Shown piece by piece: positions 2,997 through 24,737 of a DNA stretch of 64,000 nt (positions are counted from its first letter, which is position 1; each line of letters begins with the position of its first letter). The stretch comes from Patescibacteria group bacterium. Its GTDB lineage: Bacteria > Patescibacteriota > Minisyncoccia > Phycocordibacterales > JAKAEA01. The position numbers and the translations under genes are program-made. Where the stretch lies: NCBI GenBank assembly GCA_040387855.1, contig JAZKCY010000001.1, positions 189,857 through 253,856 of the forward strand, read 5' to 3'. The notes under the pieces are model-generated. The model did no database searches. It saw only the letters and a list, made by a program, of their open reading frames with translations, and was not told the origin of the DNA.

Positions 2997-3025
2997 AAAT
3001 CCCCAGCATGAGCTGGGGATTTGTT
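2997..3025 (+). terminator. hairpin terminator after tRNA-Asp
   Basis: AAATCCCCAGC-ATG-AGCTGGGGATTT followed by a weak T-tract. Confidence 0.45.
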
Positions 3026-3254
3026 GTATAATTATCAAATGTATCAAAAGGTAACAAGAAATAAGTTTTTGTTTTCAGCAATGCCTGGTTATCTTATGAG
3101 TCTTTGTATGTTTTGTATTACTGGTAGTCTTTATAATAAAGATGAAGCTCCATCTGGGCCATTCATTATTGCTGTCGGATTATTTTTAATGTTTGTATCA
3201 ACATTTAGTTTTTATATATTTTCGCTCCATTCATATTTCTTTGATTAATACCCG

Positions 3255-4316: not shown

Positions 4317-4327
4317 GTTTACTTGTA

Positions 4328-5161: not shown

Positions 5162-5183
5162 AGATGAGTATAAATAGTATACA

Positions 5184-5786: not shown

Positions 5787-5831
5787 GAGACTATACTAAC
5801 ACACTTTTTGTGGTATAATAGATGAGTTACT

Positions 5832-6422
5832 ATGCACTCAATAATACTTCAGTATGTAGAAGCCTGGCCACCGCTCGGGTATGCAATTATAGGTTTGGGA
5901 ATGGCTATAGATGGCGAGCCTTTCCTATTTGCAGCAGCATTTTTACTCTATCAAGGAATTTTAGATTTCATTCCAACACTTTTGGTTGTATTTTCAATGA
6001 CTATTATTGGAGACATTGGTTGGTTTTATTTAGGTAAGCAATTTAATCGACTTCCACGCCCTATAAAGATTTGGATAGAACGATTGGCTGGCCCGTTTGA
6101 TCATTTCCTAGAATTTCATCCAGCAAAACTCATGGGGATTTCAAAGTTTGCATATGGTATCCATCATGCATTGTGGGCACGAGCAGGAGCACTCAATTTA
6201 GATCTTAAAAAATTAATTAAAATAGATATTGTTGCTACAATCGTATGGATTGGAATAGCTGGGGGACTGTCATATATATTTAGTGCTTCATTTGATAAAG
6301 TCACACGATATATTGGTTACTTAGAAATAGGGCTGCTTATTAGTCTTATTATTTTTGTCTATTTTCAGCAAAAGATAGGTAAATTTATTACTCGAAAAAT
6401 GAATGATGTAAATAAAGTGTAG
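5832..6422 (+). CDS. DedA/SNARE-associated family membrane protein
   Basis: 196 aa, multi-TM, with a DedA-like G-rich N-terminal segment. Confidence 0.45.
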   Translation: MHSIILQYVEAWPPLGYAIIGLGMAIDGEPFLFAAAFLLYQGILDFIPTLLVVFSMTIIGDIGWFYLGKQFNRLPRPIKIWIERLAGPFDHFLEFHPAKLMGISKFAYGIHHALWARAGALNLDLKKLIKIDIVATIVWIGIAGGLSYIFSASFDKVTRYIGYLEIGLLISLIIFVYFQQKIGKFITRKMNDVNKV

Positions 6423-6484
6423 CTTTGTTCATACTTTGCAAAAAGTACTAAAATCTTCTAGTATGTAACAACTGTTCTGTATAT

Positions 6485-6955: not shown

Positions 6956-7852
6956 ATGAAAGATATAAAGATTTTGGCTCAAAAGTTTTATGATTATTCT
7001 ATTTATATTAGAGGATATTCACCAGAAACAGTAAAAAGGTATAGGCAGATTATTAACTTCTATTGTAGATTTTCCCAGATTACAAATATTGAGCAAGTTA
7101 GTGAAAAGAGTATTCAGGAACTCTTCTTATATGGCAGGACTCAAAGACAATGGCGGACAAATACCCACATTGTTTTTCATATTTCTCTAAATGTATTTTT
7201 CAGATGGTGTATTCAAGGTGGATATATAAAAATAAATCCAACAGAAAATATGGAGGTCCCTAAAGTTGAAAAGAGATTACCGCCCAAACTGACAAAACAA
7301 GATACATTAAAATTACTTGAGGTTGTCTATAATTATCCCTACGATTATAGGTATCTTAAGTATCGTAACCACGCAATATTTTCTACATTTATTTTTGCAG
7401 GACTACGTAAAAAAGAATTATTAGAATTGAAACTCTCTGATGTAGATATAGAAAATCTTACTATCTTTATCCGCCAAGGTAAGGGAAACAAAGATAGGGT
7501 GGTACCAATGACGTATACATTGGCCCAGACTCTTAAGGTATATATGAGTGAACGAAAAAGGCTGAATAAAACATGTCCACATTTCTTTGCATCCCTTAAC
7601 CGTAATATCGGGTTTACAAACATTGGATTAAGGAGATTGGTAAACAAAATCTGTATAGCTTCAGATATAAAGTTTACTATTCATAAGCTTAGACATACGT
7701 TTGCTACTCTTATGCTAGAAGGAGGTTGTGATATTTATAGTTTATCCAAGATGATGGGCCATAGTGACATCAAGACTACAACCATCTATCTCGCTGCAAG
7801 TGCTGAGCATTTGAGAATCCAAATAAGGAAACATCCCTTGAATAATTTATGA
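6956..7852 (+). CDS. tyrosine site-specific integrase/recombinase
   Basis: Catalytic-domain motifs HKLRHTFAT and GHSDIKTTTIYL (R..HxxR..Y) are present. It is adjacent to the tRNA attachment site. A GTG at 6944 lies inside the tRNA terminator hairpin, so the ATG at 6956 is preferred. Confidence 0.85.
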   Translation: MKDIKILAQKFYDYSIYIRGYSPETVKRYRQIINFYCRFSQITNIEQVSEKSIQELFLYGRTQRQWRTNTHIVFHISLNVFFRWCIQGGYIKINPTENMEVPKVEKRLPPKLTKQDTLKLLEVVYNYPYDYRYLKYRNHAIFSTFIFAGLRKKELLELKLSDVDIENLTIFIRQGKGNKDRVVPMTYTLAQTLKVYMSERKRLNKTCPHFFASLNRNIGFTNIGLRRLVNKICIASDIKFTIHKLRHTFATLMLEGGCDIYSLSKMMGHSDIKTTTIYLAASAEHLRIQIRKHPLNNL

Positions 7853-8046
7853 AATCATTGAGCAATTTTATTATTATGTAAAAATGTGTTATCGTTTCCG
7901 TCTTTAGTAATGAATTAAAAGAACTTGTTTTTAAGTCGGGCATTCTGTATACTATAAATGATTATATGGATCAGCTCTCTAATTCAAGTGTAGTAAATAT
8001 TTAGCCAAGATATAATTGGTGGGCTTTTTACTTTAGTTGTAATTTT

Positions 8047-8923
8047 ATGAAAAAATTCATTCAAAAAATATTGACAGGTACTAGATCATCTCAAAATGCT
8101 GATTTGCTTAATGAGTTTATTCAAACACAACAAGATATAAAGAAATTACCTGCCTTTTCTAACTTAGAAAAAGTTCAATTTGATCAAGATGTATCAATCG
8201 GTCATCTTTATTATTCAAGCAAAATAGAAGGTACCCATCTTGATGAAAAACGATTGAATCAAGCAATTCATGCAAAAAGAGTTTGAAAGAGCAACAGGAA
8301 AGACCGATTTGGAAAACAGAGAAGCATCTGGCTTTTGGAAAGCAATTACTTTGTCAAATGATATAGGTCAAGGGGATCAAGAAATTAATCTCGAAGTAAT
8401 TTTAAGTCTCAATCGATGTATTTTAGAGCATGCTATACCAGAAGCAGCTGGAAAACTAAGAGTAACTGGGGAGGATATACTTCCCCTTGAATGTGTAGAG
8501 CCTCCACCTGGATCTATGGTTAGAGAGAAAATGTATCAGTTTGAGAAAGATTTAAAACACAAAATTTACATAGTTCCTTTAAGGTGCCCTAAGCCAAATA
8601 ATCCTAAACACTATAAAAAGTGGGTAGATAGTGTTTTTGACCTTGCAGCATGGGTTCAGCATAGCTTAGTAGCAATACATCCCTTTTCAGAAGGGAATGG
8701 AAGGACTGCACGTCTTATGACTAATATTATTCTCAGAAGATACAATTTTCCTCCAACAGATGTGAAAATTGAATCTGATGACAAAGCAAAATATTTAAAT
8801 GCATTATGTCAAATTGATATGTATACTGATTATAAACCGTTAAAAGATCTGATACTAAAAGGTGCCCTGGCTACATTGCAAAAAGAAAGAGACATGAAAA
8901 GAAGAAAGCAAGCAGGTCAATAA
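8047..8923 (+). pseudogene. Fic/Doc-family protein split by a frameshift in an A5 run (two ORFs, 8047-8286 and 8270-8923)
   Basis: ORF1 carries the Fic N-terminal SSKIEGTHL motif and ORF2 the core HPFSEGNGRTARL. The two frames overlap at CATGCAAAAAGAG. Confidence 0.6.
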
Positions 8924-9101
8924 TTCATGATACCTTATTTTGGGTCGACGTAAGATTCAAGCTTATCTCGACGTCTAAGCTTGTAGTTATGTTGGTTTTA
9001 AAATAGTGTTAGAAATATGGATGTGTGTTACAATCTCTACTATTCTACATACAAATATAAGTACAGTAGCGATTGGAAAAAATTAAAGGTAAAATCAAAA
9101 T

Positions 9102-9464
9102 ATGGGGAATACAGACTTAATTTTACAATGGTCCAAATTAATATCATTGACTGAGGATCAAGTAGATAAACTACCTCAAGATATTGAAGGTGCTTTTCGT
9201 ATATCAAAAAAAGAGGGTGACGATAGATTCTATGTTGTTTTTATTGGCAGTTCTACAGATTTAAAAAAGGAACTTAAAAAATTGATTGCTGAAAAGAAAA
9301 CTAATTTTTTAGAACATAATGGGGAATTCTCTTTTAGATATGCTCCAGTTAAAGGCGTAGAAATAAGAAAGGCTATAGAGAAGCAGTTATATAGACAATA
9401 TGCTCCAGAATATAACTCAAAAGAACCAGAAAGCTCCTTAGATGTAAAAGCCAATCTAAATTAG
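9102..9464 (+). CDS. hypothetical protein, possibly a degenerate GIY-YIG-like domain
   Basis: 120 aa. The spacing GAFRI...(x9)...YVVFIGSS...DLKKELKK...E...YN is reminiscent of GIY-YIG, but the catalytic Tyr, Arg and His positions are substituted. Its stop is directly followed by the ATG of the next gene. Confidence 0.4.
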   Translation: MGNTDLILQWSKLISLTEDQVDKLPQDIEGAFRISKKEGDDRFYVVFIGSSTDLKKELKKLIAEKKTNFLEHNGEFSFRYAPVKGVEIRKAIEKQLYRQYAPEYNSKEPESSLDVKANLN

Positions 9465-10160
9465 ATGACATTAGTTATAGGATTAAAAGCCAAAGATGGA
9501 GTTGTAATCGCCTCTGATAGCAGAGCAAGTTCTACTATCACTAGTAATGATACTGTTCAAAAGATTTTTAAACTTGGAGATCATAGTGCAATTGGTATTG
9601 CTGGTGATGGTGGTTTGGCAATGTACTTTCTTGATCAAATAAGAGCTGGTTTAAATCATGGAACAGGGATTTCAGATTTGGCTGAACAAGTTAGAATAAA
9701 AGGTAAAAACACCTTCAATGACTTTTTCGAACATTTATTGCCAGATAAAAGACCTTCACTTTCTTTGTTATTAATTGGTTATACCACTGATGGTAAGCCT
9801 GAGATGTACACTCTCCAAAGTGGAGACAATTTTGTGCCGAGAAAAGGTGTTACAGGATTTGAATGTATAGGGGTTCCTTATATTGCAGATTATTTACTTA
9901 ATCGTCTTTATGAATCAGATATAAAAATTGATGCAGGGGCAGAGATGTCGGTTTTGTGTATACAAGAGACATCTTCTCAGGATAGAGGTGTCGGAGGTCC
10001 TACTAGAATTGCAACATTTTCTGCGACTAAACAATTTGAAGAGATGTCCAAATCAGATATCGATAAGCTAAAGCAAAAAGCTGAGCAATTTCAGATTAGT
10101 CAAAAGAATCGTTTCTACCCTGAAGATCCAAATTCTGGTATATCTGCGCCTACAGTATAG
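9465..10160 (+). CDS. Ntn-hydrolase of the proteasome beta-subunit/HslV family
   Basis: Begins MTLVIGLKAKDGVVIASDSRAS, so Thr sits directly after the initiator Met. GVVIASDSRAS matches the proteasome/HslV GxVIAADTRxT block, and Asp17 and a Lys near position 33 are present. It is 231 aa with a ~50 aa C-terminal extension. Confidence 0.65.
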   Translation: MTLVIGLKAKDGVVIASDSRASSTITSNDTVQKIFKLGDHSAIGIAGDGGLAMYFLDQIRAGLNHGTGISDLAEQVRIKGKNTFNDFFEHLLPDKRPSLSLLLIGYTTDGKPEMYTLQSGDNFVPRKGVTGFECIGVPYIADYLLNRLYESDIKIDAGAEMSVLCIQETSSQDRGVGGPTRIATFSATKQFEEMSKSDIDKLKQKAEQFQISQKNRFYPEDPNSGISAPTV

Positions 10161-10440
10161 ATGAAAATTTATGGAGTTAAGTTTGGGAACACTTATAAGC
10201 ATTACTCTAGTAGTTAAGCAGAACCATATGCTTTAGATGTTAGAAGGGAATTAAATCAAAACTAGAGCAATCTGGCTTTAAAGAGATATGGCTTACTAGT
10301 TCTATCCCCAAGCTAATATACAAACAGTATCCGTTGTAGACATTTCAGCAATGAATCTATTTGCATATGTAATTCCTGGGTTTTATCAAATCTACCTAAT
10401 ATAACGAAGACACAATAAAATCGTAAGATTTTAACTCAAC

Positions 10441-10818
10441 CTATTTTACCTTTCTAAATATAGAAAACCATTTCCTAGGTATCTTTTGATGGTGTTCAAG
10501 TAGTCTTGATTCGGTAGTAACAGAAGAAATATTTAATTCCTGTAAGACTTTCGGTTCTAAACTATCTGCAATTGAGCGAAAAGCACAAGCTAGGGTTTCT
10601 GTGGTGATCGTTTGATAATAGAATCGAGAACCCTGCTTACGACACTTTACAAGACCTCTTTTGTATAGCTTATTGATGAGTAGATAAACAGTTGGTCGAG
10701 GAATACAAGTGTCTAAGCTCAGGGAGGATAAACTTTTATTTGAAGAGTTAATCGACTGTAAAACAGCGTTCTCTTTATCTGATAATCCAAGAAGGTTTTT
10801 TTGCTCCTCAGTAAACAT
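10441..10818 (-). CDS. small winged-helix DNA-binding regulator-like protein
   Basis: 125 aa with a helix-turn-wing pattern (PTVYLLINKLYKRGLV...GSRFYY). It is oriented divergently from the RHS gene. Confidence 0.4.
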   Translation of the reverse strand: MFTEEQKNLLGLSDKENAVLQSINSSNKSLSSLSLDTCIPRPTVYLLINKLYKRGLVKCRKQGSRFYYQTITTETLACAFRSIADSLEPKVLQELNISSVTTESRLLEHHQKIPRKWFSIFRKVK

Positions 10819-11057: not shown

Positions 11058-14000
11058 GTGAACCAATCATTTTCACGGGAGCGACAGGGAAGAAACTTAA
11101 CAAACGTAATTGTTGGGTTACTTATCCTCTCATTAGTTTTTAGTAGTCCATTATTAACATTTGCTCAAAGTGTTGATGAAGCTCCTAGTCAGGCTCCTGT
11201 TGAAACTCCAACAAACTCACCAGCAGTTGATACAAATACTATTCCTCTTGATACATCTGAAATTCAAAATGCGATAGAATATAACAATAATAATCAGGAG
11301 GCTGCATTAACAGAGTCAGCTGAAGATTCACCACAGTCTTTAGAAGCAGAAGAGGACCAAAATATAATTGCACTTCCTGATGATGAGTTACAACCAGACT
11401 CACTATTGTCAGATACAGAGACAGGTGTAGATCGATTTCGTGATCCTTCAGCAAATGTTATTAAAAATCAAATATCCAGAAATTTGGCTGGTGCACTTAA
11501 TTATTCATACCCAATAGAAGTGCCTCCAGGAAGGACACAGGCTACAACTCCAAATTTGGAATTGCAATATTCAAGTAGTCCCGATCTTGCAAATGTGTTT
11601 GGCTATGGTTGGTCAGTTAACATTCCATATATCGAAAGAGTCGGAAAGAGAGGAACAGATAAGTTATATACAGGCACCGATTTTAATTCTTCTCTTACAG
11701 GAGAATTGGCATCAACTTCGGCAACAACCTATATCTCCAAAATTGATAATGGAGATTTTTTGAATTACACTTTTCAAAATAATATATGGACGGTTACTGA
11801 TAAATCGGGAAATCAATATACGTTTGGTTCAACAACAGCTGCAAGACAGGATAATGTTGCTAGCTCTACACAAGTTTATAAGTGGATGCTTGAAGATTTT
11901 AGAGATACAAATGGTAATTATATTAAGTATCAGTATTCTAAAGATTCTGGACAAATATATCCTTCATCAATTATTTATTCAGGAAATAATACAACAGACG
12001 GGCCATTTGAAGTTGCTTTCAGTCGAGAGTCTCGAGCTGATGTCTCAACTTCAACACAATCAGCGTTCAGTGTTGTTACAAAAGATAGAATTAATGAAAT
12101 TCAAACAAAATTTAACGGTGATTGGGTAAGGAAATATACACTAGCATATAGTACAGGCGATAATACTGTTCGATCCATATTAACCTCAGTGACACAATCT
12201 TCACGGGATGATTTACTTACAGCTACAACTACACTTCCTGCAACCACATTTACGTATTCAACTTCAACATTATCTTATTCACAAAGTTCTGCTTTTCAAC
12301 CTCCTATATCACTTAATGAAGCTTTTACTGATCCCTATTTCATGAACACTGGGGTAACTGATTATGGCTTGAAGATTGTTGATATAAACGGCGACGGATT
12401 AACTGATATTCTTCAAGCATTTGGTGCTCGATACGGTGGTTCTTGGACAGTTGAATATCACGCCTATATAAATAACGGGAATGGGTACACTGATACACCC
12501 TCTTGGTATTCTCCCGTGGATTTTATGATACAGGCTCAGGATGGTTATCGAATTGACACAGGTGTGGTATTTGAAGATATAAATGGGGATAAATTACCAG
12601 ATCTTATTCAGTCAAGTGATGGTACTCATGGTTGTGGTTGTTTTGGTTCCCCTTGGATTGAACCTGTAAAAAAGGTATATATAAATACTGGATCTGGTTT
12701 TGCAACGAGTACCGATTGGGTTATACCAGTTTATTTTGTATACAACGCAACACAACAACATACTAGAGATCTAGGTGTGCGAATGGCTGATGTTAATGGT
12801 GATGATTTACCAGATATTCTTGAAGGCCGCACTTATTCAAATGGTTCAGGAGGTACAACAACAGTTAAAAATGTATTTATTAATACTGGAACAGGTTTCG
12901 CTACATCAACAAGTTGGACTCTGCCTGTAGATTTTGTTGATAGCTGGAATCAAAATCGTGGTAATCCCTACCAAGATCTTGGAGTTAGAATTGTGGATAT
13001 TAACTCTGATGGTCTTAATGATATTGTAGAATCGAGCTGCCTTTCTAATGGATCAGTTTACCGTAAGAAAGCATATATAAATTCTGGTACTGGTTTTGTT
13101 GATGATCCAACATGGCATCCTGCTTTATGTTTTGTTACGAGAGATCCTGCCACACCTAACACTTATAGTCTGGTTAATTACATGGATGAGGGGGTACGAT
13201 TTATGGATATCAATGGTGATAGTCTTGTGGATTTTTATAAAAGTACAACTAACGATGCTACTGCGACCTCTACTGCTTATCTAAATACGGGAAAAGGTTT
13301 TAGTTTGCTTAATTCATGGACCCCTGCAACATCAACAATTTATGCATCGGGAAATGATAGAAATGATCGTGCAACGAGATTTGTTGATATAAATGGTGAT
13401 GGAAGAACAGACGTTTTGCAAGGAAGAGGTGATGTGTATCCTAGTCTAAGATACGCATACTTAAGTGCTTCAACAACTCCAGATTTGCTTATAAAAGTTC
13501 AAGAGCCACAGGGTGGTATGACATCAATGTCATACAAAATGTCTGCTCAATACAATAATGCAACCTCATCAAATCCGAATCTCCCACTTAATGTTCGAAC
13601 TGTTGAAACAATTGCTACTAACAATGCCTTTGGAATAGTGGGTACAACTACATATGCATATAATGGAGGACTCTTCTATTTCAATAATGCATTTGATAAG
13701 AAGTTTGCAGGTTTTGCATCAACAACTGAAACTGATGCTGTTGGGAATCTAACAAAATCTTATTTTCACCAGGGGAGTACGACTGATTCAAGTCATGGTG
13801 AGTATCAAGATGATGCTTCAAAAATTGGTAAAGCTTATCGAATTGAAAAATATGATAATGCCAATAATCTCTATCAGAAAATAATTAATAAGTGGGATAA
13901 GTCTGCTCTTTCTAATGGAGCAAACTTTGTGAAGCTTACCCAAACGATTAATTCTGCATATGATGGAACAGTAAATCATAAAGACAAGGCAGAGCAGTAT

Positions 14001-17000
14001 ATATATAATGATGCCGCTGGAACACTAACTCAAAAAATTCAACTCGGAGAGGTCACGGGTAGTGATGATGGTACCCTCTCGGATACTGGTGCAGATTTAT
14101 TTACAACAACAATAACCTATGCTACCAGCTCTCCTATAATTATTCCTGCTACTGAGATCATGGTAGATCAGAGTTCAGTTAAAGTTGCTGAGGTTCGTCA
14201 TTACTATGATACCCTCTCTTTGGGAAGTGTGACAAAAGGTAATAAGACAAAAATTGAAAAGTGGAAAGTAAGTAGCTCATATGCATCTACCACGCGGACA
14301 TTCAATGCTTATGGTCTTGTAACACAAGAACTTGATCCCCGAAGTAAGGCAACAAACTATGTATACGATATATATAATATGTATCCAGCAACAAGTACAA
14401 ACGCATTAAGTCAATCCACATCATATGTATACAATTACCTAGTTGGTAAAGTAAAACAGGTAACTGACTCTAACGGTTTGGTAAATCAAACTACTTATGA
14501 TGGATTCGGAAGAGTTACAGAAGAAAAGCAACCTGATCTTACAACTCCTTCAACTCTAGTTACAAAAGCAACATATGCGTATACAGACACAGCATTACAA
14601 ACAAGTGTTCATAAGGTAAATTATCTTTCTGCATCAAGCACTACAAATTCCTATAATTACTATGATGGATTAGGTAGATTGATTCAAGAACGAAAATCTG
14701 CAGAGGGAACTAATTATTCAGTCAGTGATACTATTTATAATTCTCTTGGTCTTAAGGCTTCACAATCACTCCCATATTTCTCAACTGGTTCTGCAAGTAC
14801 AACCCCAACGGCAACAACAGCACTTTATACACGGTATACGTATGACCCATTACAGCGAGTGAAAACAGTTGCCAACATTGTTGGTACAACTACAAATACA
14901 TACACACCTTGGGTGGTTCATGTTGAAGATCCTCGATATAAAGCAAAGAACTATTATCGCGATGCATATAATAACCTCATAAAGGTTGATGAAATTGATG
15001 GAGTGACAGGATATGCAACTGAATATCAATATAACGGTTTGGGTAAACTTACAAAGATCACTGATGGACTAGCAAATGTGCGTAACTTTACCTACGATGG
15101 ACTTGGAAGAAGATTAACAGCACAAGACCTTCATGCATCAGCTGATACAACATTTGGAAGTACAACCTATGCATATGATGATGCTGGAAACCTAACTCAA
15201 AAAATAGATGCAAATAATCAGACTGTGAATTATACCTATGATGATCTCAATAGACCACTAACTGAAAATTATACAGGTGCAGTAGGAACTGAAATAAGCT
15301 ACGGATATGATTCTTGTGTTTATGGAGTGGGAAGATTATGTAGTGCTACAACAACTGATGCTATTACTCAATATGAATACAACACTGAAGGATTACAGAG
15401 TAAAGAAACAAAAACTTTAAATGCAGTTAATTATATTACTCAGACTCAATATGATCGACAGGGTAATGTAACAAACATTGTATATCCTGATAGTTCACAA
15501 GTTGCATACACGTATAATACTGGCGGTCTTCTAGAAACAGTCTCACGAAAAGAAAGTACTGATGGAGGATTTACTAATGTGGTGACAAATTATGACTACT
15601 CACCATTAGGTCAGGTTACTGCTATTGCATATCAAAATGGAGTGCAAACTACAAACACTTATGATGCAAATGAACTCTACAGATTAAGAAGTAAAGTAAC
15701 TACAAATGCATCAAGTACCAATCTTCAGAATATTGCTTACACCTATGATGCCGTAGGAAATATCACTGGCATTACAGATACTTCAGCAACAAATGGAGCA
15801 AAGACAGCAGTTTATACTTATGACGATCTTAATCGCTTATCATCAGCAACTGTAACTGCTTCAAGCACCAGTGGAGGTAGTTGGTACAACTCATCATGGG
15901 GATACCGAGTTCCAATAACTGCAAGTTCTTCTAAAGTTCTTGAAGACATTAAGGACGTATATGTACCACTCTCATCATTACCATCAGGTTTCTTTGCAAA
16001 TGCAAAATCAGATAGTTGTGATATTCGAATGACAAAAGCAGATGGTACTACTGAGCTAGCAATAGATTTAGTATCTGCATCAACAACTGGTCAGCTGCAT
16101 TTCTCAACAGGGAATAGTCTCTCAACTTCTTCAAGTACAATCTTCTATCTTTACTACGGAAACCCAAGTGCAAGTTGTTATGCCTCAAATGCTACCTACG
16201 GAGCAAACAATGTGTATGACTCAAATACAAAGGGAGTATGGCATTTAGAGCAAAATTCAGCCTCTACAGGAGCAATTGTAGACTCAACCTCAAATGTTCA
16301 TCATGGAACTATGTATTCAAATTATTCAGCAAATGCAAACGGAACTACAACTGGAAAACTTGGAAGTGCAGCAGTCTTTGATGGTACAAATGACACTATC
16401 GATGTCCCAGACAGTTCAGACTTTGAAGGTGCTGCGACAACTATTGAAGCCTGGGCATACATGGATACACTTCCAAGTGTAAAGGGTGAGAATGAAGTCC
16501 TAGTTACAAAGAAGCATGGATCATCACCATGGAGATCATATGCTGTTATGTTTTCAAATCCTGAAAATAGAACTGATGGTAATTGGAATAATAGTTCAGG
16601 AAGTACAGGATATGCTGGTACCTATGCAGGATCAGTATCAGCAAATGCATGGCATTATGTAACCCTACGACAAAATCCTTCAGATACCTCAAGTGAAGTA
16701 TCTGTGCGAACCAATGCTTCAAATGCTACAACATATACCGCCGATACTGATGGCACTACTTACAATTCAAATGATGCTCTACGTTTTGGTGCAGACTATG
16801 CTGGTGGAGAACGACTTGATGGAAACCTAGATGAAATCCGAATTCACAATGTTGCTCGAAGTGATAATTACATCACTACTCGATACAACAACATGAATGC
16901 TCCTTCAACATTCTGGAGTGTTGGATCACAAACTGCAGCTGCAACATCTTCAAACACAAGTTATACAGAAAACTACACTTACAATATTCTTGGAAACATA

Positions 17001-18281
17001 CTTACTAAGACAGGCGCAGCTGGTACATATGCATATACTGGTAGTTCAACAGGCTATGCAAATCCTCATGCGGTGACTGCGATTGGATCTGATACCTATG
17101 CATATGATAACAATGGAAATCTTACTTCGGCTCCAGGAATCACTAACTTATGGGATTATCGAAATCGATTAACACAATCTGTCGCTACGAGTACCGTGAC
17201 CTATGCGTACGATCATGCTAATAGTCGAATTAAATATTCAGTAGCATCAACTACAACCTCTTATCCAAATAAGTTCTACAATACAACAGGTGCAACCACT
17301 ACAAAGCACATCTTTGATGATAGAGGTCAGATGATCGCTACACTTGAAGGCTCAAATGCAAGTACAACGGTTCATTATACTCATACTGATCATCTTTCTG
17401 GATCAAATGTTATTACGAATTCATCTGGTATCTTAGAACAATTGACGGATTACTATCCTTACGGTAATGTTCGCTTAGATGAAAGGACTGGAGCGTTTAA
17501 TGAGCAGAGGAAGTATGCAGGTAGTGAGTTTGACGGTGATACAGCGTATAACTATATGCAAGCTAGGTATTATGATAGTAATAGTGGAAGGTTTATTTCT
17601 CAGGATTCTATATTTCTTAATATGGGAAATGAAAATGACTTCCTTTCTGATCCTCAGCAACTAAATAGTTACAGTTACGCGAGAAACAATCCATTAAAAT
17701 ACTATGATCCTGATGGTAATCAGACAGTATCGGCTCCTCTTAATGCAGTTTTTCGATTTTCAGGATCAGCTAGTCTTGCGCAATCACTTGCAATGGCCGA
17801 TGCTATTCTTGCTGGGGGTTCAATTGCGGGTGCAATCGTCAGTGCTGGACCTGTGTTAGTGGGAGGGGGTATAACTGCTGTTCTCGTTTATGCTGTTGTT
17901 ACTACACCTTGGACACCATTAAGTCAAAACCAAAGTACTCCTTCGTTTTCTAGTTCTTTATCACCAACAAGTCTTCCAACCGCAAATTCAAATCCTCTTT
18001 TGGGAACTGGTACAACAGCTGATTTTGGTAATTGGTTTAATTCAATAAACTTATCAAAAACAACAATTACACAAAAACCTGGTAATTTTAACGATGCACA
18101 GAGAGATTTTTGGGCAAGAAATCCAGAGAATGTGCAACATCGACCAAATGGTACAATTACTGGAAATTTACCAAATGGTGACAAAATAAATGTAAGACCA
18201 CAAAGTAGTGATGGTCGACCTACAATTGAGATTCAGAAAGAGGGTGGTGGAGTAGAAAAAATAAGATATGGAAATAAATAA
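11058..18281 (+). CDS. RHS/YD-repeat polymorphic toxin (2407 aa), built as signal peptide, SpvB/TcdB-N-like domain, FG-GAP/beta-propeller repeats, YD-repeat shell with an inserted DUF2341/LamG-like module, RHS core with a DPxG motif, and a variable C-terminal domain
   Basis: N-terminal signal peptide; a SpvB-like block (NVFGYGWSVNIPYIERV); seven VDINGDGLTDIL-type repeats; many YD repeats (YTYDGLGRRLT, YAYDDAGNLTQK, YTYDDLNRPLTE...); LDGNLDEIRIHNVARSDNY (LamG); and the RHS core ...RYYDSNSGRFISQDS...NNPLKYYDPDGNQ. Confidence 0.9.
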   Translation: MNQSFSRERQGRNLTNVIVGLLILSLVFSSPLLTFAQSVDEAPSQAPVETPTNSPAVDTNTIPLDTSEIQNAIEYNNNNQEAALTESAEDSPQSLEAEEDQNIIALPDDELQPDSLLSDTETGVDRFRDPSANVIKNQISRNLAGALNYSYPIEVPPGRTQATTPNLELQYSSSPDLANVFGYGWSVNIPYIERVGKRGTDKLYTGTDFNSSLTGELASTSATTYISKIDNGDFLNYTFQNNIWTVTDKSGNQYTFGSTTAARQDNVASSTQVYKWMLEDFRDTNGNYIKYQYSKDSGQIYPSSIIYSGNNTTDGPFEVAFSRESRADVSTSTQSAFSVVTKDRINEIQTKFNGDWVRKYTLAYSTGDNTVRSILTSVTQSSRDDLLTATTTLPATTFTYSTSTLSYSQSSAFQPPISLNEAFTDPYFMNTGVTDYGLKIVDINGDGLTDILQAFGARYGGSWTVEYHAYINNGNGYTDTPSWYSPVDFMIQAQDGYRIDTGVVFEDINGDKLPDLIQSSDGTHGCGCFGSPWIEPVKKVYINTGSGFATSTDWVIPVYFVYNATQQHTRDLGVRMADVNGDDLPDILEGRTYSNGSGGTTTVKNVFINTGTGFATSTSWTLPVDFVDSWNQNRGNPYQDLGVRIVDINSDGLNDIVESSCLSNGSVYRKKAYINSGTGFVDDPTWHPALCFVTRDPATPNTYSLVNYMDEGVRFMDINGDSLVDFYKSTTNDATATSTAYLNTGKGFSLLNSWTPATSTIYASGNDRNDRATRFVDINGDGRTDVLQGRGDVYPSLRYAYLSASTTPDLLIKVQEPQGGMTSMSYKMSAQYNNATSSNPNLPLNVRTVETIATNNAFGIVGTTTYAYNGGLFYFNNAFDKKFAGFASTTETDAVGNLTKSYFHQGSTTDSSHGEYQDDASKIGKAYRIEKYDNANNLYQKIINKWDKSALSNGANFVKLTQTINSAYDGTVNHKDKAEQYIYNDAAGTLTQKIQLGEVTGSDDGTLSDTGADLFTTTITYATSSPIIIPATEIMVDQSSVKVAEVRHYYDTLSLGSVTKGNKTKIEKWKVSSSYASTTRTFNAYGLVTQELDPRSKATNYVYDIYNMYPATSTNALSQSTSYVYNYLVGKVKQVTDSNGLVNQTTYDGFGRVTEEKQPDLTTPSTLVTKATYAYTDTALQTSVHKVNYLSASSTTNSYNYYDGLGRLIQERKSAEGTNYSVSDTIYNSLGLKASQSLPYFSTGSASTTPTATTALYTRYTYDPLQRVKTVANIVGTTTNTYTPWVVHVEDPRYKAKNYYRDAYNNLIKVDEIDGVTGYATEYQYNGLGKLTKITDGLANVRNFTYDGLGRRLTAQDLHASADTTFGSTTYAYDDAGNLTQKIDANNQTVNYTYDDLNRPLTENYTGAVGTEISYGYDSCVYGVGRLCSATTTDAITQYEYNTEGLQSKETKTLNAVNYITQTQYDRQGNVTNIVYPDSSQVAYTYNTGGLLETVSRKESTDGGFTNVVTNYDYSPLGQVTAIAYQNGVQTTNTYDANELYRLRSKVTTNASSTNLQNIAYTYDAVGNITGITDTSATNGAKTAVYTYDDLNRLSSATVTASSTSGGSWYNSSWGYRVPITASSSKVLEDIKDVYVPLSSLPSGFFANAKSDSCDIRMTKADGTTELAIDLVSASTTGQLHFSTGNSLSTSSSTIFYLYYGNPSASCYASNATYGANNVYDSNTKGVWHLEQNSASTGAIVDSTSNVHHGTMYSNYSANANGTTTGKLGSAAVFDGTNDTIDVPDSSDFEGAATTIEAWAYMDTLPSVKGENEVLVTKKHGSSPWRSYAVMFSNPENRTDGNWNNSSGSTGYAGTYAGSVSANAWHYVTLRQNPSDTSSEVSVRTNASNATTYTADTDGTTYNSNDALRFGADYAGGERLDGNLDEIRIHNVARSDNYITTRYNNMNAPSTFWSVGSQTAAATSSNTSYTENYTYNILGNILTKTGAAGTYAYTGSSTGYANPHAVTAIGSDTYAYDNNGNLTSAPGITNLWDYRNRLTQSVATSTVTYAYDHANSRIKYSVASTTTSYPNKFYNTTGATTTKHIFDDRGQMIATLEGSNASTTVHYTHTDHLSGSNVITNSSGILEQLTDYYPYGNVRLDERTGAFNEQRKYAGSEFDGDTAYNYMQARYYDSNSGRFISQDSIFLNMGNENDFLSDPQQLNSYSYARNNPLKYYDPDGNQTVSAPLNAVFRFSGSASLAQSLAMADAILAGGSIAGAIVSAGPVLVGGGITAVLVYAVVTTPWTPLSQNQSTPSFSSSLSPTSLPTANSNPLLGTGTTADFGNWFNSINLSKTTITQKPGNFNDAQRDFWARNPENVQHRPNGTITGNLPNGDKINVRPQSSDGRPTIEIQKEGGGVEKIRYGNK

Positions 18282-18771
18282 AAATAAATCAAATATTCTA
18301 ATGCCAGAAAAATATAGTAAATGGGAACCAATTCAGGGAATCGAATCCGAACTATGGATAGAAGCACTTCACGATGACTACGAAGGCTTGCGAATTATAG
18401 TTAAGGGTACTAATGAGGCTTCGGCTATGTATAGTATACTTTTTCCAAATTATTATACATATCGTAATACTGATGAATCGTATCGACTCAAGCTTTGGGA
18501 AGAAGGTGAGTTTGAAGACCGTAAGTGGTCACTCTTTTTCATTAAAGCATCAAAATTTATAGATTGGGTTCATGAAGAAAGTGATACTCTGTATAAAAAA
18601 GAAGATATGATGCATTACTTGATTAAGACAGGAGCTGATGTGATTGAAGTTGTCACGAATGGTATCGAACCAAAAGTTATAAAACTTCACGAAAAGGTTC
18701 AGTCTGACCTAGAATCTAATTCATTAGTTAGAAGAGGTAAAAGAGGTAGCTATTTTGATAAAATTGATTAA
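18268..18771 (+). CDS. putative cognate immunity protein for the RHS C-terminal toxin
   Basis: 167 aa cytoplasmic-type ORF that overlaps the RHS stop by 14 nt (translational coupling), which is the canonical toxin-immunity arrangement. Confidence 0.5.
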   Translation: MEINKNKSNILMPEKYSKWEPIQGIESELWIEALHDDYEGLRIIVKGTNEASAMYSILFPNYYTYRNTDESYRLKLWEEGEFEDRKWSLFFIKASKFIDWVHEESDTLYKKEDMMHYLIKTGADVIEVVTNGIEPKVIKLHEKVQSDLESNSLVRRGKRGSYFDKID

Positions 18772-18787
18772 GTTGTGGCCACGGTGA

Positions 18788-18964
18788 AGGTTATATGTCG
18801 CAGCAGTCCTTTACCCACTACATAGTGATCATCTATCTGGATCAAGTATTGTATCAAATGTTTCAGGAAGTATTGAAGAACTTTCAGATTATTATCCATA
18901 CGGAGCTATGAGAATTAGTGATCAGTCTGGATCATTTACTGACCTAAGAAAATATGTATTTTAA
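18788..18964 (+). pseudogene. orphan RHS core remnant (displaced C-terminal fragment)
   Basis: Translates to ...LHSDHLSGSSIVSNVSGSIEELSDYYPYGAMRISDQSGSFTDLRKYVF*, homologous to the HTDHLSGSNVITNSSGILEQLTDYYPYGNVRLDE core of the full-length gene. No start codon, and it ends before a DPxG motif. Confidence 0.6.
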
Positions 18965-18984
18965 TTTCATTAATAAAACATATT

Positions 18985-19431
18985 ATGCATCCATACGAAT
19001 ATAATTTAAGTTTCAGTCTTGTACATCCAAAGAAGAAATTAAGTGAGTTATATAATAGAATTAGTGAAGTTTCTGGATTTTATCCTCGACGAATTTGGAC
19101 TGCAGGAGATAAACGAAAGACCCAATCGGGAGAAGATCTGGAAGGAACATACAAAGAATCATACTGTTATTTTGCTCTAAATAATTCTTTATTAAAAAGT
19201 TCAGAAATTCGTTTGGAAAATAGTCTTGAAGAAGTCTTAGAGAAGCTTTCAGTTTTGAAAAGAGAATTCAAAGAATTTGTTGACGAGGATGGAGTTTTAG
19301 AAATAACCGTTGGGTTTTACGTTGATTCAAATTCTGCTGGAATATTTCATTTTGAATTACTTAGAAAATTCTGTGATTTAGGAATTGGCTTAACTCTTGA
19401 TGTATACTCTTCAGTTAATGAGATGAAATAA
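18985..19431 (+). CDS. hypothetical small protein, candidate orphan immunity protein
   Basis: 148 aa immediately downstream of the RHS core remnant. Acidic, with no TM; the size and context fit an immunity-gene array. Confidence 0.4.
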   Translation: MHPYEYNLSFSLVHPKKKLSELYNRISEVSGFYPRRIWTAGDKRKTQSGEDLEGTYKESYCYFALNNSLLKSSEIRLENSLEEVLEKLSVLKREFKEFVDEDGVLEITVGFYVDSNSAGIFHFELLRKFCDLGIGLTLDVYSSVNEMK

Positions 19432-19434
19432 TTC

Positions 19435-20004
19435 ATGAAATACAAAGTTGAAAGACCCCCATTAACAGGAAACTTTTTCTTGCCTTCAAAAGAAAGTTTA
19501 GTTGAACTTAAACCAGGCAATCTTGTCAAAATTATGATTAGACATGAAGAAGAAGGAGTAGAAAGAATGTGGGTAAAAATAATACAACAGCAAGATATTT
19601 CAGAATGGACTGGGGTTTTAGATAATGATCCTGTAGGTGAAAAAATGAGTGGATTGTTAAAAGCAGGAGATATAGTAATATTTCATCCTCTGGATATCAT
19701 TCAGATCTGGGATGATAAAAAAATTACAAACTGGGAATTTAAAGAAGCAATAAATGCCAGAGTGTTTACTACTCCAGAAATAGCTTCGGGTATAAAACCT
19801 GTTTTATTTGCAATACATGAATTAGATGGCGATTGGCAGTTTTTGCCATCTGAAAAAACTGAGGATAAAAACGCAATTTTTATCCCTTTGAGGTACTTAA
19901 TTGAAAATGATAATACTTTGTCTGAATTGGGTAATCTACCTGTGGGATGGCACGCAAAACGAAAAAGTATTGAGGATTCGTGGATTAGAGAAAGTGAAAA
20001 ATAA
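19435..20004 (+). CDS. DUF2314(YegJ)-like protein, candidate immunity protein
   Basis: 189 aa with ERMWVKI...GVLDNDP, resembling the ERMWVxV...GxLxNxP pattern of DUF2314 proteins that recur in polymorphic-toxin immunity arrays. The start is 3 nt after the previous stop. Confidence 0.45.
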   Translation: MKYKVERPPLTGNFFLPSKESLVELKPGNLVKIMIRHEEEGVERMWVKIIQQQDISEWTGVLDNDPVGEKMSGLLKAGDIVIFHPLDIIQIWDDKKITNWEFKEAINARVFTTPEIASGIKPVLFAIHELDGDWQFLPSEKTEDKNAIFIPLRYLIENDNTLSELGNLPVGWHAKRKSIEDSWIRESEK

Positions 20005-20119
20005 CCTTAACTATATATTTAAATTTTTTATTGCATTAATAAGCGAAAAATTTGACTTGACCCTAATTACTACCTCACATTCAGGTAGACCAAATCCTTA
20101 ATAATAATAATTAACTGAT

Positions 20120-20425
20120 ATGTATATTAAAAAACAATTAGAGGACGGTGGAAATAAAATAATATGGAAAGGCAATGTGTCTTTTCCTGAAAAAATGATT
20201 AATATAATAAGTAAAATAGATACTCGAATTTATCCATTATTAAAAGGGATCGCATCTTACGAGGATACTTATTTTAATTCACAACAGACAAAGGATCTCA
20301 TTGAAGAACTTCAATCGTTTAAAGATTCACTTACTGATGAAAAGGATAAAGAGGAAATAGAAAGCTTAGTAAAATTCGCTAAGGATATAGATATGCAGGA
20401 ACATTTGGTTTTTGTAGGTGATTAA
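20120..20425 (+). CDS. hypothetical small acidic protein (immunity-like)
   Basis: 101 aa located within the immunity-like gene run. Confidence 0.35.
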   Translation: MYIKKQLEDGGNKIIWKGNVSFPEKMINIISKIDTRIYPLLKGIASYEDTYFNSQQTKDLIEELQSFKDSLTDEKDKEEIESLVKFAKDIDMQEHLVFVGD

Positions 20426-20545
20426 ATGCTGTCTAGGTGTTGACCCATTAATTTAAGGGAGGTTGTGCATAAAAATAAATGGCAAATTGTAGAAAAATCT
20501 AATTTGTAAACATACTCTTTTCTATTAGTTTGCTAGAATAAAGTT

Positions 20546-21064
20546 ATGGCAACATTGCGTCAAAAATTGGCTTTTAATAAAACCATTGAAAATCAGGGAA
20601 ATGTTAGTAAAGCTATGAAAGAAGCTGGTTATTCCAGGAGTCACGCTCATAATCCACAATCACTGGTTAAGAGTAAAGGTTTTCAGCAGATGCTTCAAAA
20701 TTATATTCCAGAGCAACGAATTCTTGAGAAAGTTAGTGAGTTGTTTGAAAGGGGAGAAATAGTAAGTCGGACATTTCCTTCAATCCTTGGTTTAGATACC
20801 GTTAAGAAAATGTTTGAAAAGGCAGGATTGACCATTTTAAATTTACGAGAAGTAGGGGATCAAAAAAATGAAATAGAAGTATATTTCATTCAGCCAGATG
20901 CTACATCACAAGATAAGGCTCTCGAAAAATCAATTAAATTGCATGGTTTATATGAGACAGATCATACACATGGGGCTAATGCTAAAGGATTGTCACTTAT
21001 AAGTCTTTTTGAAAAGGTAGAAGAAAGAAGAGCAAATAGGGCAATGAAGAATAAGATTCAATAA
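20546..21064 (+). CDS. phage terminase small subunit-like HTH protein
   Basis: The N-terminus LRQKLAFNKTIENQGNVSKAMKEAGYSRSHAHNPQSLVKSKGFQQML matches the LxxKQxxFxxxYxxxGNxxxAxxxAGYS...A...LLK pattern of phage terminase small subunits. Confidence 0.45.
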   Translation: MATLRQKLAFNKTIENQGNVSKAMKEAGYSRSHAHNPQSLVKSKGFQQMLQNYIPEQRILEKVSELFERGEIVSRTFPSILGLDTVKKMFEKAGLTILNLREVGDQKNEIEVYFIQPDATSQDKALEKSIKLHGLYETDHTHGANAKGLSLISLFEKVEERRANRAMKNKIQ

Positions 21065-21720
21065 GTCTTTATTTGAAAGTAAGAAGTATTATTTAGTTGT
21101 TTAGACACTAGTTCTAATTTTTTTATATGCTCTAATGGGCGCTTGAGGTCCTGACCCTGTGAAATCAGGTTTTCGTAATTTTCTGCTAGCTTATTACCGA
21201 ACACACCGTCTCCAAAAATATCATAGTCTTGTTTAATAAACTTACCCAATCCAAATGGAAAGACTGCATCAAGTTTAGTTGTACCAAAACCTACTGGTAA
21301 GCGACTATGAATATCGTGAAATGGACTAAAGCTGTATCCTTTTGGAATTTTAACTGATCGTCTCGGGTGATATGGATGGAAGTAGAGGATATCCCAGCTT
21401 TTGCCATCAAAGGATACAGTTTCAAATACATCAATAGGATTTGCTATTGCACCTATAGTTACTGATCCAATCCTATGAAATAGTAACGCTGAATTATTTT
21501 TCGTTCTAAGTCTACCAATATATTTAATTTCACCAATAGGTCCATTAACAGGTATAGGATTGGATGCCATTAATCCAAATGAACCATTAGCTCCTTTAAC
21601 TTCGTCACAAACTTCTCCTTCTAGACATATTTTAGAAAACTGTTCAGGAAATTTAAGTAGATCAGCTTTTTGTTCTAGTAAGGACTCATCTTTGATGACT
21701 TTTTTAAAAAGGTTGAACAT
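21058..21720 (-). CDS. hypothetical protein (220 aa)
   Basis: Long ORF with no recognisable motif. It abuts the upstream 101-aa ORF with zero spacing (coupled pair). Confidence 0.45.
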   Translation of the reverse strand: MFNLFKKVIKDESLLEQKADLLKFPEQFSKICLEGEVCDEVKGANGSFGLMASNPIPVNGPIGEIKYIGRLRTKNNSALLFHRIGSVTIGAIANPIDVFETVSFDGKSWDILYFHPYHPRRSVKIPKGYSFSPFHDIHSRLPVGFGTTKLDAVFPFGLGKFIKQDYDIFGDGVFGNKLAENYENLISQGQDLKRPLEHIKKLELVSKQLNNTSYFQIKTY

Positions 21721-22026
21721 TTATTTAATTCCAAACGCATAACCAGCTACAAGTATTATAAGTATTACAAAAATGAGAGTGCTTAACCAGAAGCCCCCCC
21801 AGAAAGCACTTCTTGCATTGGTATACTCAGCCCAGAATGCCATTTCAAACTTCTTGATATTATTTGCTAAAATGAATTCTTCTAAATCCATGTGACTCAT
21901 TTTTCTGAATGAAATCCCTGGATGTTTTATGTGTACACCTTTCTCTACAAGGGTATCAAGTGAAGTCCCAAAGTGAATCCTTGGTCCCGTAAGCTCATTT
22001 ATGATCTTTTGTAAGTCAGGAGGCAT
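21721..22026 (-). CDS. hypothetical protein with a C-terminal transmembrane anchor
   Basis: 101 aa with a C-terminal hydrophobic helix (FWGGFWLSTLIFVILIILVAGYAFGIK). It is the first gene of a two-gene minus-strand cassette. Confidence 0.4.
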   Translation of the reverse strand: MPPDLQKIINELTGPRIHFGTSLDTLVEKGVHIKHPGISFRKMSHMDLEEFILANNIKKFEMAFWAEYTNARSAFWGGFWLSTLIFVILIILVAGYAFGIK

Positions 22027-22126
22027 GTTGATGACTATAAGTATCTATACTCCTACTCTACCACAATTATAATGATACTTATAGTCCGTCGCCTTAAAGT
22101 CATCATCACAATACCCTTAAGGTATT

Positions 22127-22351
22127 ATGATCCCTAAAAACAGCGCTATCTTAAAAAAGTTTGGAGAACGCGTGAGAGATATACGGTTACGAAAAGGAAT
22201 ATCTTCACAGATGACTTTTGCTAATAAAGCTGGACTAGATCGAACCTATATTGGAGGAGTGGAAAGAGGTGAACGAAATGTATCTTTAATCAATATTGAA
22301 AAGATTGCAAAAACTCTTAATGTTAATATTGAAGACTTGTTTAAGTTTTAG
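22127..22351 (+). CDS. XRE-family (Cro/CI-type) HTH transcriptional regulator
   Basis: 74 aa with the HTH_XRE pattern RLRKGISSQMTFANKAGLDRTYIGGVERGERNVSLINIEKIAKTL. Confidence 0.75.
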   Translation: MIPKNSAILKKFGERVRDIRLRKGISSQMTFANKAGLDRTYIGGVERGERNVSLINIEKIAKTLNVNIEDLFKF

Positions 22352-22522
22352 AGAGAATGGAATTATACACATAGTATCAACACATGTTCTTTGACATGAA
22401 ACAGGTTGTTGATACTATATAAATATAACTAAATAGAAAAAAGCTCAGTGAGATGGCTTTCCAGGTTACATAAAAACATGTAACAAGAAAGTTTATCGCT
22501 GGGCTTTTTTTGTGGAAAAAAT

Positions 22523-23470
22523 ATGAAAGAAAATATTTCGGAATTATTTAAAAAATTTATTGAGGACTGTAGGTATATTAAACGGCTTCGTCCAGAAACT
22601 ATTCGTACTTACTCTGAGGCATTTAAAACTTTTATAAAAGTTATGCCAGAAGTGGTCAATGTTAAGTTGCTTACTCGTGAGATGCTAACTCTCTACTTCA
22701 AAAGACTTGAAACAAGAGGGAGAAAGGTTGGAAAAGATACTATTAAAATTGGTGTAAAGGACTCAACAATTAAAACCTATCAGAATAGATTAAATGTGTT
22801 TTTCACATGGCTTGTAAATATGCAACATATAGAAACCAATCCATTTATTGGGATGAAGTTTCCTAATCCAGTATACGAAGATAGTAGAGCATTAGAGCAA
22901 GATAGTATTGATAAAATATTTGCTGCTGTGGCGTTACACTCAATAAATTCACTAATCCATAAGCGAGACATAGCAATACTAAGTCTACTTATGTTCTGTG
23001 GTTTGAGAAGAAATGAGCTTATCTCACTTCAAGTTAATGATGTTGATTTTGAAAATTCAATGTTAGTCATTAAAGGTGAGACATCGAAATCTAAAAAAAC
23101 GCATTCTGTCCCATTACATCCAACTCTAGGAATGCATTTAAAGGATTACTTAAAAGAACGTTGCAAAAAAGAGTATAAAACTCAATATTTAATCATCTCT
23201 ACAAATAGAGATCGAGGATTAAGTAGCGATGGATTGAAACATTGGGTAAAAAGGCTGGTTAAATTATCTGGTGTAAAATTTCATCTCCATAAATTTCGAC
23301 ATACCTTTGCCTGTAACCTAGCTAAAAATAATGTAAGCGTATTCAACATTCAAACGTTGATGGGGCATAAAGATTATAAGATGACGTTATCATATTTGAG
23401 ATCAGTGAAAACTAAGGATCTTAGAGACGAGATTAATAGGTTATACAGTAATGTTGATAATTTTCACTAA
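22523..23470 (+). CDS. tyrosine site-specific integrase (second copy, distinct sequence)
   Basis: HKFRHTFACNLA and GHKDYKMTLSYL catalytic motifs, plus an N-terminal core-binding domain. It lies 190 nt upstream of the partial tRNA repeat. Confidence 0.85.
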   Translation: MKENISELFKKFIEDCRYIKRLRPETIRTYSEAFKTFIKVMPEVVNVKLLTREMLTLYFKRLETRGRKVGKDTIKIGVKDSTIKTYQNRLNVFFTWLVNMQHIETNPFIGMKFPNPVYEDSRALEQDSIDKIFAAVALHSINSLIHKRDIAILSLLMFCGLRRNELISLQVNDVDFENSMLVIKGETSKSKKTHSVPLHPTLGMHLKDYLKERCKKEYKTQYLIISTNRDRGLSSDGLKHWVKRLVKLSGVKFHLHKFRHTFACNLAKNNVSVFNIQTLMGHKDYKMTLSYLRSVKTKDLRDEINRLYSNVDNFH

Positions 23471-24661: not shown

Positions 24662-24737
24662 GCCACCTTAGCTCAGTTGGTAGAGCAATGCTTTCGTAAA
24701 GCAGAGGTCCCGAGTTCGATTCTCGGAGGTGGCTCCA
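24662..24737 (+). tRNA. tRNA-Thr (CGT), CCA encoded
   Basis: GCCACCT acceptor, D-arm GCTCAGTTGGTAGAGC, anticodon stem ATGCT/AGCAG, loop TTCGTAA, T-arm CCGAG-TTCGATT-CTCGG, 3' AGGTGGC-T-CCA. Confidence 0.8.

Follow-up and report, generated by a model that had tools for sequence, protein, structure and literature searches.

A probable decayed tail of an RHS polymorphic-toxin locus in a Patescibacteria genome, with a core remnant and orphan immunity-family genes

A stretch of 64,000 nt from the Patescibacteria group bacterium assembly GCA_040387855.1 (contig JAZKCY010000001.1, positions 189,857 to 253,856 of the forward strand; hereafter the window) was analysed around an RHS/YD-repeat polymorphic toxin gene and the short features that follow it. 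These are a gene overlapping the RHS stop, a fragment of an RHS core (the stub) and three small open reading frames (ORFs), ORF148, ORF189 and ORF101, which are annotated at NCBI as hypothetical proteins V4519_01205, V4519_01210 and V4519_01215, respectively. The G+C content of the region is about 33%. The features are as follows, in positions of the window.

11058-18281, plus strand: main RHS/YD-repeat polymorphic toxin gene, 2407 aa, with Pfam and TIGR03696 matches.
17382-17519, plus strand: block of the main RHS gene homologous to the stub (residues 2109-2154), from BLASTP and the codon alignment.
17718-18278, plus strand: C-terminal toxin tip of the main RHS protein, 187 aa, following DPDG.
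18268-18771, plus strand: candidate cognate immunity gene of the main tip, 167 aa (156 aa from an alternative start at 18301).
18788-18964, plus strand: RHS core remnant (pseudogene stub), 177 nt, homologous part 18821-18958, with no DPxG and no toxin.
18985-19431, plus strand: ORF148, 148 aa, assigned as an orphan immunity gene of the DUF4279/FdL-Imm5 family from Pfam, its relatives and their context.
19435-20004, plus strand: ORF189, a two-domain polyimmunity-like gene, 189 aa, 3 nt behind ORF148.
19435-19734, plus strand: Imm34/DUF2314-like N-terminal domain of ORF189, residues 1-100.
About 19735-20001, plus strand: probable Imm33/DUF2185-like C-terminal domain of ORF189, with family-level and hhalign support.
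20120-20425, plus strand: ORF101, 101 aa, 115 nt from ORF189, with no assigned family and unproven membership of the array.

A preliminary description, made from the sequence alone, had read the segment at 18788-18964 as a diverged copy of the RHS core that lacks a start codon and ends before any DPxG motif, followed by three ORFs of 148, 189 and 101 aa; all of this was borne out. The frame-2 translation of the segment is RLYVAAVLYPLHSDHLSGSSIVSNVSGSIEELSDYYPYGAMRISDQSGSFTDLRKYVF*. In a BLASTP comparison with the 2407-aa main RHS protein, stub residues 12-57 aligned without gaps to residues 2109-2154, with 24 of 46 positions identical (52%), 39 of 46 positive and an E value of 7e-18, and a tblastn search of the whole 64-kb window with the main RHS C-terminus returned the gene itself and 18821-18958 only (E 1e-13). 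The stub holds the last YD repeat followed by the start of the Rhs_assc_core domain (~24 residues, the first third of the core); taken by itself, this 58-aa sequence is too short to reach the TIGR03696 and Pfam thresholds. The chance of a 59-codon open frame in DNA as rich in A+T as this is about 0.005. At the level of sequence comparison, the stub was thus confirmed as an RHS core homologue with similarity beyond chance. An in-frame TGA (18785-18787) lies immediately upstream of it, neither ATG, GTG nor TTG occurs in the frame until the Met of 'GAMR', and the frame, which was not called as an ORF, ends at a TAA (18962-18964) 66 residues before the position equivalent to DPDG. A continuation of the core in another frame past 18964, as would follow a frameshift, was searched for and not found. 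Lacking a start codon, the stub is untranslatable, and it is a remnant rather than an orphan toxin module, having neither a DPxG motif nor a variable toxin. A 22-nt direct repeat (18911-18932 and 19057-19078, 82% identical), which reads in frame as RISDQSG in the stub and RISEVSG in ORF148, was judged to be a chance match.

When the DNA of the stub and the main core was aligned by codon, 90 of 138 nt were identical (65%), the longest exact run was 10 nt, identity at codon positions 1, 2 and 3 was 65, 78 and 52%, and 14 of the 24 conserved residues shared a codon. The distribution over codon positions indicates that the two diverged as protein-coding sequence before the truncation and that the stub did not arise by recent duplication of the resident core, and a frame still open over 59 codons indicates little decay since the cut. 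The stub is accordingly best read as the record of an old event rather than of ongoing switching. The opposite view, in which the stub serves as a working homology arm and the array as a silent store of cassettes for active tip switching comparable to the orphan rhs of Salmonella and the orphans of contact-dependent growth inhibition systems, can appeal to other bacteria, where orphan modules do recombine with the main gene (PMC7043789, PMC10539506), and to the stub frame that is still open. No toxin lies downstream to be swapped in, however, and no repeats connect the stub with the main gene. Homologous recombination depends on substrates that RecA can use, and 65% identity with an exact match of 10 nt lies far under what it needs. 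Active cassette switching is therefore very unlikely, to the point of being close to negligible.

ORF148 starts 20 nt past the stop of the stub. Its own Pfam match, to DUF4279, has an E value of 4e-4 and a score of 21 bits, under the cut-off of 25, and extends over positions 9-114 of the 116 in the profile; its precomputed annotation carries PF14106. A full HMMER (phmmer) search of 1.84 billion representatives returned 476 relatives at E<=1e-3, of which 74 reach E<=1e-10, where a k-mer-based search had returned ORF148 alone; among the best 40 of the 476, 26 match DUF4279 at E<=1e-3 (best 5.6e-8). A search of PDB sequences with ORF148 and its family profile gave nothing significant. DUF4279 corresponds to FdL-Imm5, one of the immunity families of polymorphic toxin systems, for which CdiI (4G6V_B) is named as a structural relative (PMC9424270); in Salmonella pathogenicity island 19 (SPI-19), a DUF4279 protein has been suggested to confer immunity to an Rhs-Ntox33 effector (PMC13304343).

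ORF148 relatives were found behind homologous tips in three independent metagenomic loci, each time in the position of a cognate immunity gene. In a Saccharibacteria metagenome-assembled genome (MAG; locus L006), a 46%-identical relative starts 3 nt behind a 1937-aa RHS gene; in L043-45, a 42%-identical relative follows an RHS gene after a gap of 10 nt; and in L050, a relative of ~40% identity overlaps the RHS gene end. The toxin tips of these loci are mutually homologous (E 1e-23 to 1e-42) and have in common the signature '...PSGTxPIDQxG...DWTG..P.GD.IT..PNG...N.GP'. The members of this tip family, each followed by a DUF4279 gene of the ORF148 subfamily, are as follows.

L006, 6614-6994: 'PSGTxPIDQ' tip.
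L043, about 3840-4287: 'PSGTxPIDQ' tip.
L050, about 370-785: 'PSGTxPIDQ' tip.

A Pfam scan of the 'PSGTxPIDQ' tip family gave no match, and no trace of the family was found anywhere in the 64-kb window, where ORF148 follows the stub alone. Because its DUF4279 relatives are tied to one tip family and that family is missing from the window, ORF148 is read as an orphan immunity gene, a divergent member of the DUF4279/FdL-Imm5 family as judged from its relatives. Its subfamily and the unclassified 'PSGTxPIDQ...DWTG...NxGP' RHS tip form a testable toxin/immunity pair. Like other FdL-Imm5/DUF4279 proteins (PMC9424270, PMC13304343), which form a single ferredoxin-like-domain immunity family encoded directly behind polymorphic toxin genes, the ORF148 relatives stand directly behind such genes; unlike in the Rhs-Ntox33/DUF4279 pair (PMC13304343), the tip linked to them matches no Pfam family and is not recognisably Ntox33. 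Further relatives occur within toxin-free runs of small same-strand genes in L042 (two DUF4279 copies) and L047, and in unrelated contexts in L046 and L048.

The resemblance of ORF189 to DUF2314, noted earlier from the ERMW and LDNDP patterns, was upheld at the level of its family. Of 27 non-redundant family members, 10 match DUF2314 at E<=0.01 (best 4e-7), three members with two domains additionally match Imm33 at 9e-13, and the ERMW and LDNxP motifs (ERMW and LDNDP in ORF189) are invariant or nearly so throughout. Imm34 is DUF2314, with a signature of ExxW and a C-terminal D, has been fused to Imm33 (DUF2185) repeatedly and independently, and is found in heterogeneous polyimmunity loci (PMC3482391, Zhang et al. 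2012). Among seven close relatives of ORF189, five are stand-alone forms of ~120 aa that correspond to its N-terminal 100 residues, and one (P0002) has two domains. The P0002 C-domain, 56% identical to that of ORF189, matches Pfam Imm33 (PF09951) at E 0.0017 and 18.6 bits, under the cut-off of 25.4, and an hhalign comparison of the ORF189 C-domain with the true Imm33 domains of the same family gave P 1.6e-4 and a probability of 50%; a Pfam scan of the ORF189 C-domain itself gave no match. An AlphaFold2 (AF2) model showed the N-domain as a confident all-beta barrel, with a predicted local distance difference test score (pLDDT) of ~88, and the C-domain poorly modelled. A Foldseek search of the PDB with this model returned only weak Tudor/SH3-like barrels (E at least 0.08), and a search of PDB sequences with ORF189 and its family profile gave nothing significant. 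ORF189 thus probably joins an Imm34 (DUF2314) domain to a probable Imm33 domain, as polyimmunity proteins do. As in the described Imm34-Imm33 fusions (PMC3482391), the ERMW and D signature is followed by a W-containing, mostly beta second domain.

A metagenome scan with ORF189 yielded 35 further loci. Each of the four closest relatives of the N-domain (L007, L008, L009 and L010; 58-73% identity) has an RHS gene 1-2.5 kb upstream of it. As L008, a short contig, gives matches that mirror those of L007, the four were counted as three independent loci. The RHS genes concerned are 47-51% identical to that of the window, their toxin tips and intervening small genes are all different, and in each the Imm34-like gene is the last of the RHS block. 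What lies beyond it varies: two serine-recombinase-like genes in L009, an identical pair of IS200-like transposase genes in L010, and ORF101 followed by a block ending in a Xer-like gene in the window. More distant relatives (<=45% identity) have no RHS gene nearby, and several stand among housekeeping genes, namely between GAPDH and DAP epimerase genes, between dapB-like and purF-like genes, and behind hisD-like genes. Since the Imm34-like gene is conserved at the edges of loci with differing toxins and has distant relatives near housekeeping genes, it is not the partner of a recently displaced tip. A displacement model places the oldest cassette at the greatest distance from the main gene, and there the Imm34-like gene fits as a shared ancient orphan; ORF189 is probably such an older orphan, kept widely at the far edge of RHS loci of this kind.

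The same data may be compatible with a conserved accessory or boundary role of the Imm34-like gene. In one version, which is quite unlikely, the gene would be the conserved limit, on the right-hand side, of a region of cassette exchange in this family of Patescibacteria RHS loci, where tip/immunity cassettes are swapped by double crossover between the conserved RHS core as left arm and this gene as right arm. If true, this would account for the conservation of the gene (58-73%) relative to the RHS shell (47-51%) and for the Xer-like, serine recombinase and IS200-like genes just beyond it. In another version, ORF189 and ORF101, if not all of the small ORFs, are non-immunity accessory or flanking genes, such as an export or loading helper, or unrelated neighbours. 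The better conservation of the ORF189 N-domain gene, its fixed place at the far end while toxins and intermediate genes differ, the housekeeping neighbours of its distant relatives and the lack of any relatives of ORF101 would all suit such genes. Against this, the ORF189 family matches DUF2314, which is Imm34, and several members are fused to bona fide Imm33 in the polyimmunity architecture already described (PMC3482391); scattered orphan copies near housekeeping genes are also typical of immunity genes; and ORF148, with a toxin linkage consistent in three loci, is left out. This second version is distinctly improbable.

The main RHS protein matches the Pfam families RHS_repeat (1e-21), SpvB (3e-14), Laminin_G_3 (3e-12) and FG-GAP_3 (4e-8) and the Rhs-associated core model TIGR03696 (1.6e-17), the latter domain beginning at about residue 2132. 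It begins with a signal-peptide-like stretch, an SpvB/TcdB-like region, FG-GAP repeats and a YD shell into which a Laminin_G_3 domain is inserted; the Rhs-associated core, the DPDG cleavage motif (residues 2217-2220, nt 17706-17717) and the tip follow. The tip is 44% identical to that of the RHS gene in L042. The 167-aa gene overlaps the RHS stop by 14 nt and has a 48%-identical relative directly behind the homologous toxin tip in L042; Pfam and NCBIfam scans assigned it to no family. By its position and this relative, it is the candidate for the expected cognate immunity gene of the main tip. All RHS tips seen (17718-17900 in the window and the C-termini in L006, L042, L043 and L050) have a Gly/Ala-rich, hydrophobic, transmembrane-like stretch right behind DPxG, followed by the toxin domain, and this stretch accounts for weak cross-matches between differing tips (E 1e-3 to 3e-4).

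Taken together, the region is probably the decayed tail of an RHS polymorphic-toxin locus, composed of a working RHS and immunity pair, the stub of a displaced RHS gene, and orphan immunity genes. The 2407-aa RHS protein and the overlapping 167-aa immunity gene would be the working unit. On installation of the present tip/immunity cassette, a resident 'PSGTxPIDQ' tip and its DUF4279 immunity gene would have been pushed downstream, and a later deletion of ~0.6-0.8 kb would have taken the remaining core and the toxin and spared the immunity gene. ORF148 would then bind and neutralise 'PSGTxPIDQ...DWTG...NxGP' RHS toxins coming in from neighbouring cells; any part played by ORF101 would be conjectural. 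A precedent for a truncated orphan exists in L010, where an orphan tip is cut right after 'YIHGDHLGG' by the insertion of an IS200-like transposase gene. A search of the window for remnants of the toxins or immunity genes of five related loci found none, and Pfam scans of the immunity candidates and toxin tips of related loci mostly gave no family.

Several statements of the preliminary description are modified by these results. The array of immunity-like genes holds for ORF148 (DUF4279) and ORF189 (Imm34) and is unsupported for ORF101, for which no relatives, family or fold were found. The term orphan toxin/immunity cassettes had to be abandoned; the array consists of immunity genes only, and no orphan toxin and no toxin-coding sequence survives downstream of the main gene. 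The proposed standard footprint of tip displacement stands as to a core remnant accompanied by an orphan immunity gene and falls short in that the 5' and not the 3' part of the core was kept, so that a deletion is needed as well. Diversity of tips is evident across the wider lineage; ongoing RHS diversification is not shown for this genome, given the low DNA identity of stub and main core and their lack of any exact run longer than 10 nt.

A number of points weigh against the proposed history. The stub retains the 5' core, where a classic displaced orphan has the 3' core and toxin, which is the reason that a second event has to be assumed, and the deletion has left no direct trace. The L042 locus has the tip, the immunity gene and the DUF4279 genes in the order of the window without a core stub between them, so that the orphan state of the DUF4279 gene may predate its arrival in this genome. 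The Pfam score of ORF148 by itself is under the curated cut-off, the DUF2314 (PF10077) match of ORF189 itself (E 0.09) is likewise under the Pfam cut-off, and the assignment of the ORF189 C-domain to Imm33 is only suggestive. The distant Imm34-like relatives stand away from RHS genes, as described above, and ORF101 finds no explanation in the model. To our knowledge, immunity activity of Imm34/DUF2314 has no experimental demonstration.

The L042 locus also bears on whether the displacement and deletion took place in this lineage at all. It has a window-type tip (44%) and a window-type immunity gene (48%), followed by DUF4279 genes among small same-strand ORFs, and this agreement of families and order in a locus so distant (44-48% protein identity) suggests that such a block can travel or persist as a unit. 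The tip, immunity gene, stub and DUF4279 gene might then have been imported en bloc, already decayed. At the place of the stub, though, L042 has a 93-aa ORF, and the spacer there is without DNA similarity. Among the RHS genes compared, the stub is closest to the core of the window's own gene, with 52% identity as against 39-45% by tblastn for the RHS genes of four other loci, which favours a local or closely related origin. Import en bloc, the main alternative, is hence unlikely, though it retains some plausibility, and decay of a displaced RHS gene at this locus is the preferred explanation.

Orphan Rhs modules and orphan or polyimmunity arrays are well documented (PMC7043789, PMC10539506, PMC5727410, PMC4436062, PMC3482391), and Saccharibacteria have been noted to carry an RHS toxin with an immunity gene beside it (PMC6031116). 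The window array is of this well-known kind, here in a bacterium of the candidate phyla radiation. As in the enterobacterial Rhs orphan modules of Salmonella Typhimurium, Serratia and bee-gut symbionts (PMC7043789, PMC10539506, PMC5727410), orphan immunity genes persist without a toxin. The window differs from these in that the stub keeps only the 5' start of the core, with DPxG and toxin lost, and in that the stub and the main core are too dissimilar in DNA for switching; in place of the PAAR/VgrG context of the enterobacterial type VI secretion system (T6SS), the RHS protein has a signal-peptide-like leader and an SpvB/TcdB-type N-terminus, and the host is a Patescibacteria MAG. With the described polyimmunity loci (PMC3482391) it shares tandem, same-strand small immunity-family genes without toxins, ORF148 and ORF189 having no intact toxin adjacent to them. 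In contrast to those loci, the array is very short, with two supported genes, both under the Pfam cut-offs when taken alone, and the Imm33 assignment is indirect. The features particular to this array are its immunity-only content, the 5'-core stub, the conserved Imm34-like terminal gene and the consistent pairing of a DUF4279 subfamily with an unclassified tip. Even episymbiotic Patescibacteria genomes of ~1 Mb thus retain antidotes to RHS toxins that are no longer made, and the keeping of antidotes without the toxin implies that toxins are a real means of competition, whether among these cells or with their neighbours. In other respects, this is a textbook footprint of Rhs locus evolution and leaves the general picture unchanged.

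ORF101 matched only itself in a search of 5.8 billion proteins, was assigned to no family in Pfam, NCBIfam or PHROGs, and gave a single-sequence AF2 model with a pLDDT of 62 for which a fold search returned no match; it may belong to the variable region beyond the locus. An Rfam scan of 18200-22600 returned nothing, and a promoter and terminator scan gave matches no more frequent than in shuffled sequence. Between 20546 and 23470 there follow, in order, a 172-aa ORF with faint similarity to terminase small subunits (Pfam E 0.04; PHROG 51 E 0.003), two minus-strand ORFs without assigned function, an XRE-type helix-turn-helix (HTH) gene and a Xer-like tyrosine recombinase gene, whose best NCBIfam match is XerA (2e-38, under the cut-off). 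A tRNA-Thr gene (24662-24737) lies 1.2 kb past the recombinase. A search for att-type repeats or a second tRNA-Thr 3' end delimiting an island found none, and the Xer block is either a mobile element or a chromosomal Xer gene. The acquired interbacterial defence (AID) islands of Bacteroidales reported by Ross et al. in 2019 are said to carry orphan immunity genes, sometimes behind toxin-gene remnants, near a tyrosine recombinase. In the window, by contrast, unrelated ORFs separate the array from the Xer-like recombinase gene 2 kb away, a search for repeat structure gave none, and nothing links that gene with the array.

Just upstream of the RHS locus, a proteasome-family subunit gene (9465-10160) carries a precomputed PF00227 annotation and matches archaeal and bacterial NCBIfam models at 1e-9 to 1e-13, all under cut-off.

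Some additional observations were made on the related loci. In L009, the RHS gene is divided between two consecutive ORFs (3-2921 and 2926-6036), owing to a stop codon, a frameshift or an error in the assembly. The tip of this gene carries an HAE...CPSC pattern, deaminase-like by eye, and a 207-aa gene behind it matches DUF416 (1e-7). Two tandem minus-strand ORFs of ~575 aa (7294-10748), with N-termini resembling large serine recombinases by eye, stand directly behind the Imm34-like gene of this locus. In L010, two identical IS200/Y1-type transposase genes (5777-6454 and 7563-8240; Pfam Y1_Tnp 5e-14) bracket a 154-aa ORF and the Imm34-like gene. Orphan RHS tips that start at an ATG of their own and have a signal-peptide-like leader (e.g. 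MPKALALLLIALILAPTSVIFA...) occur in L010 (3884-5017 and 5446-5748) and L006 (7486-8244) and continue with the last YD repeat, the core and the toxin; these leader-bearing tips, seen in the relatives only, might be exported as shell-less mini-toxins rather than kept as silent cassettes.

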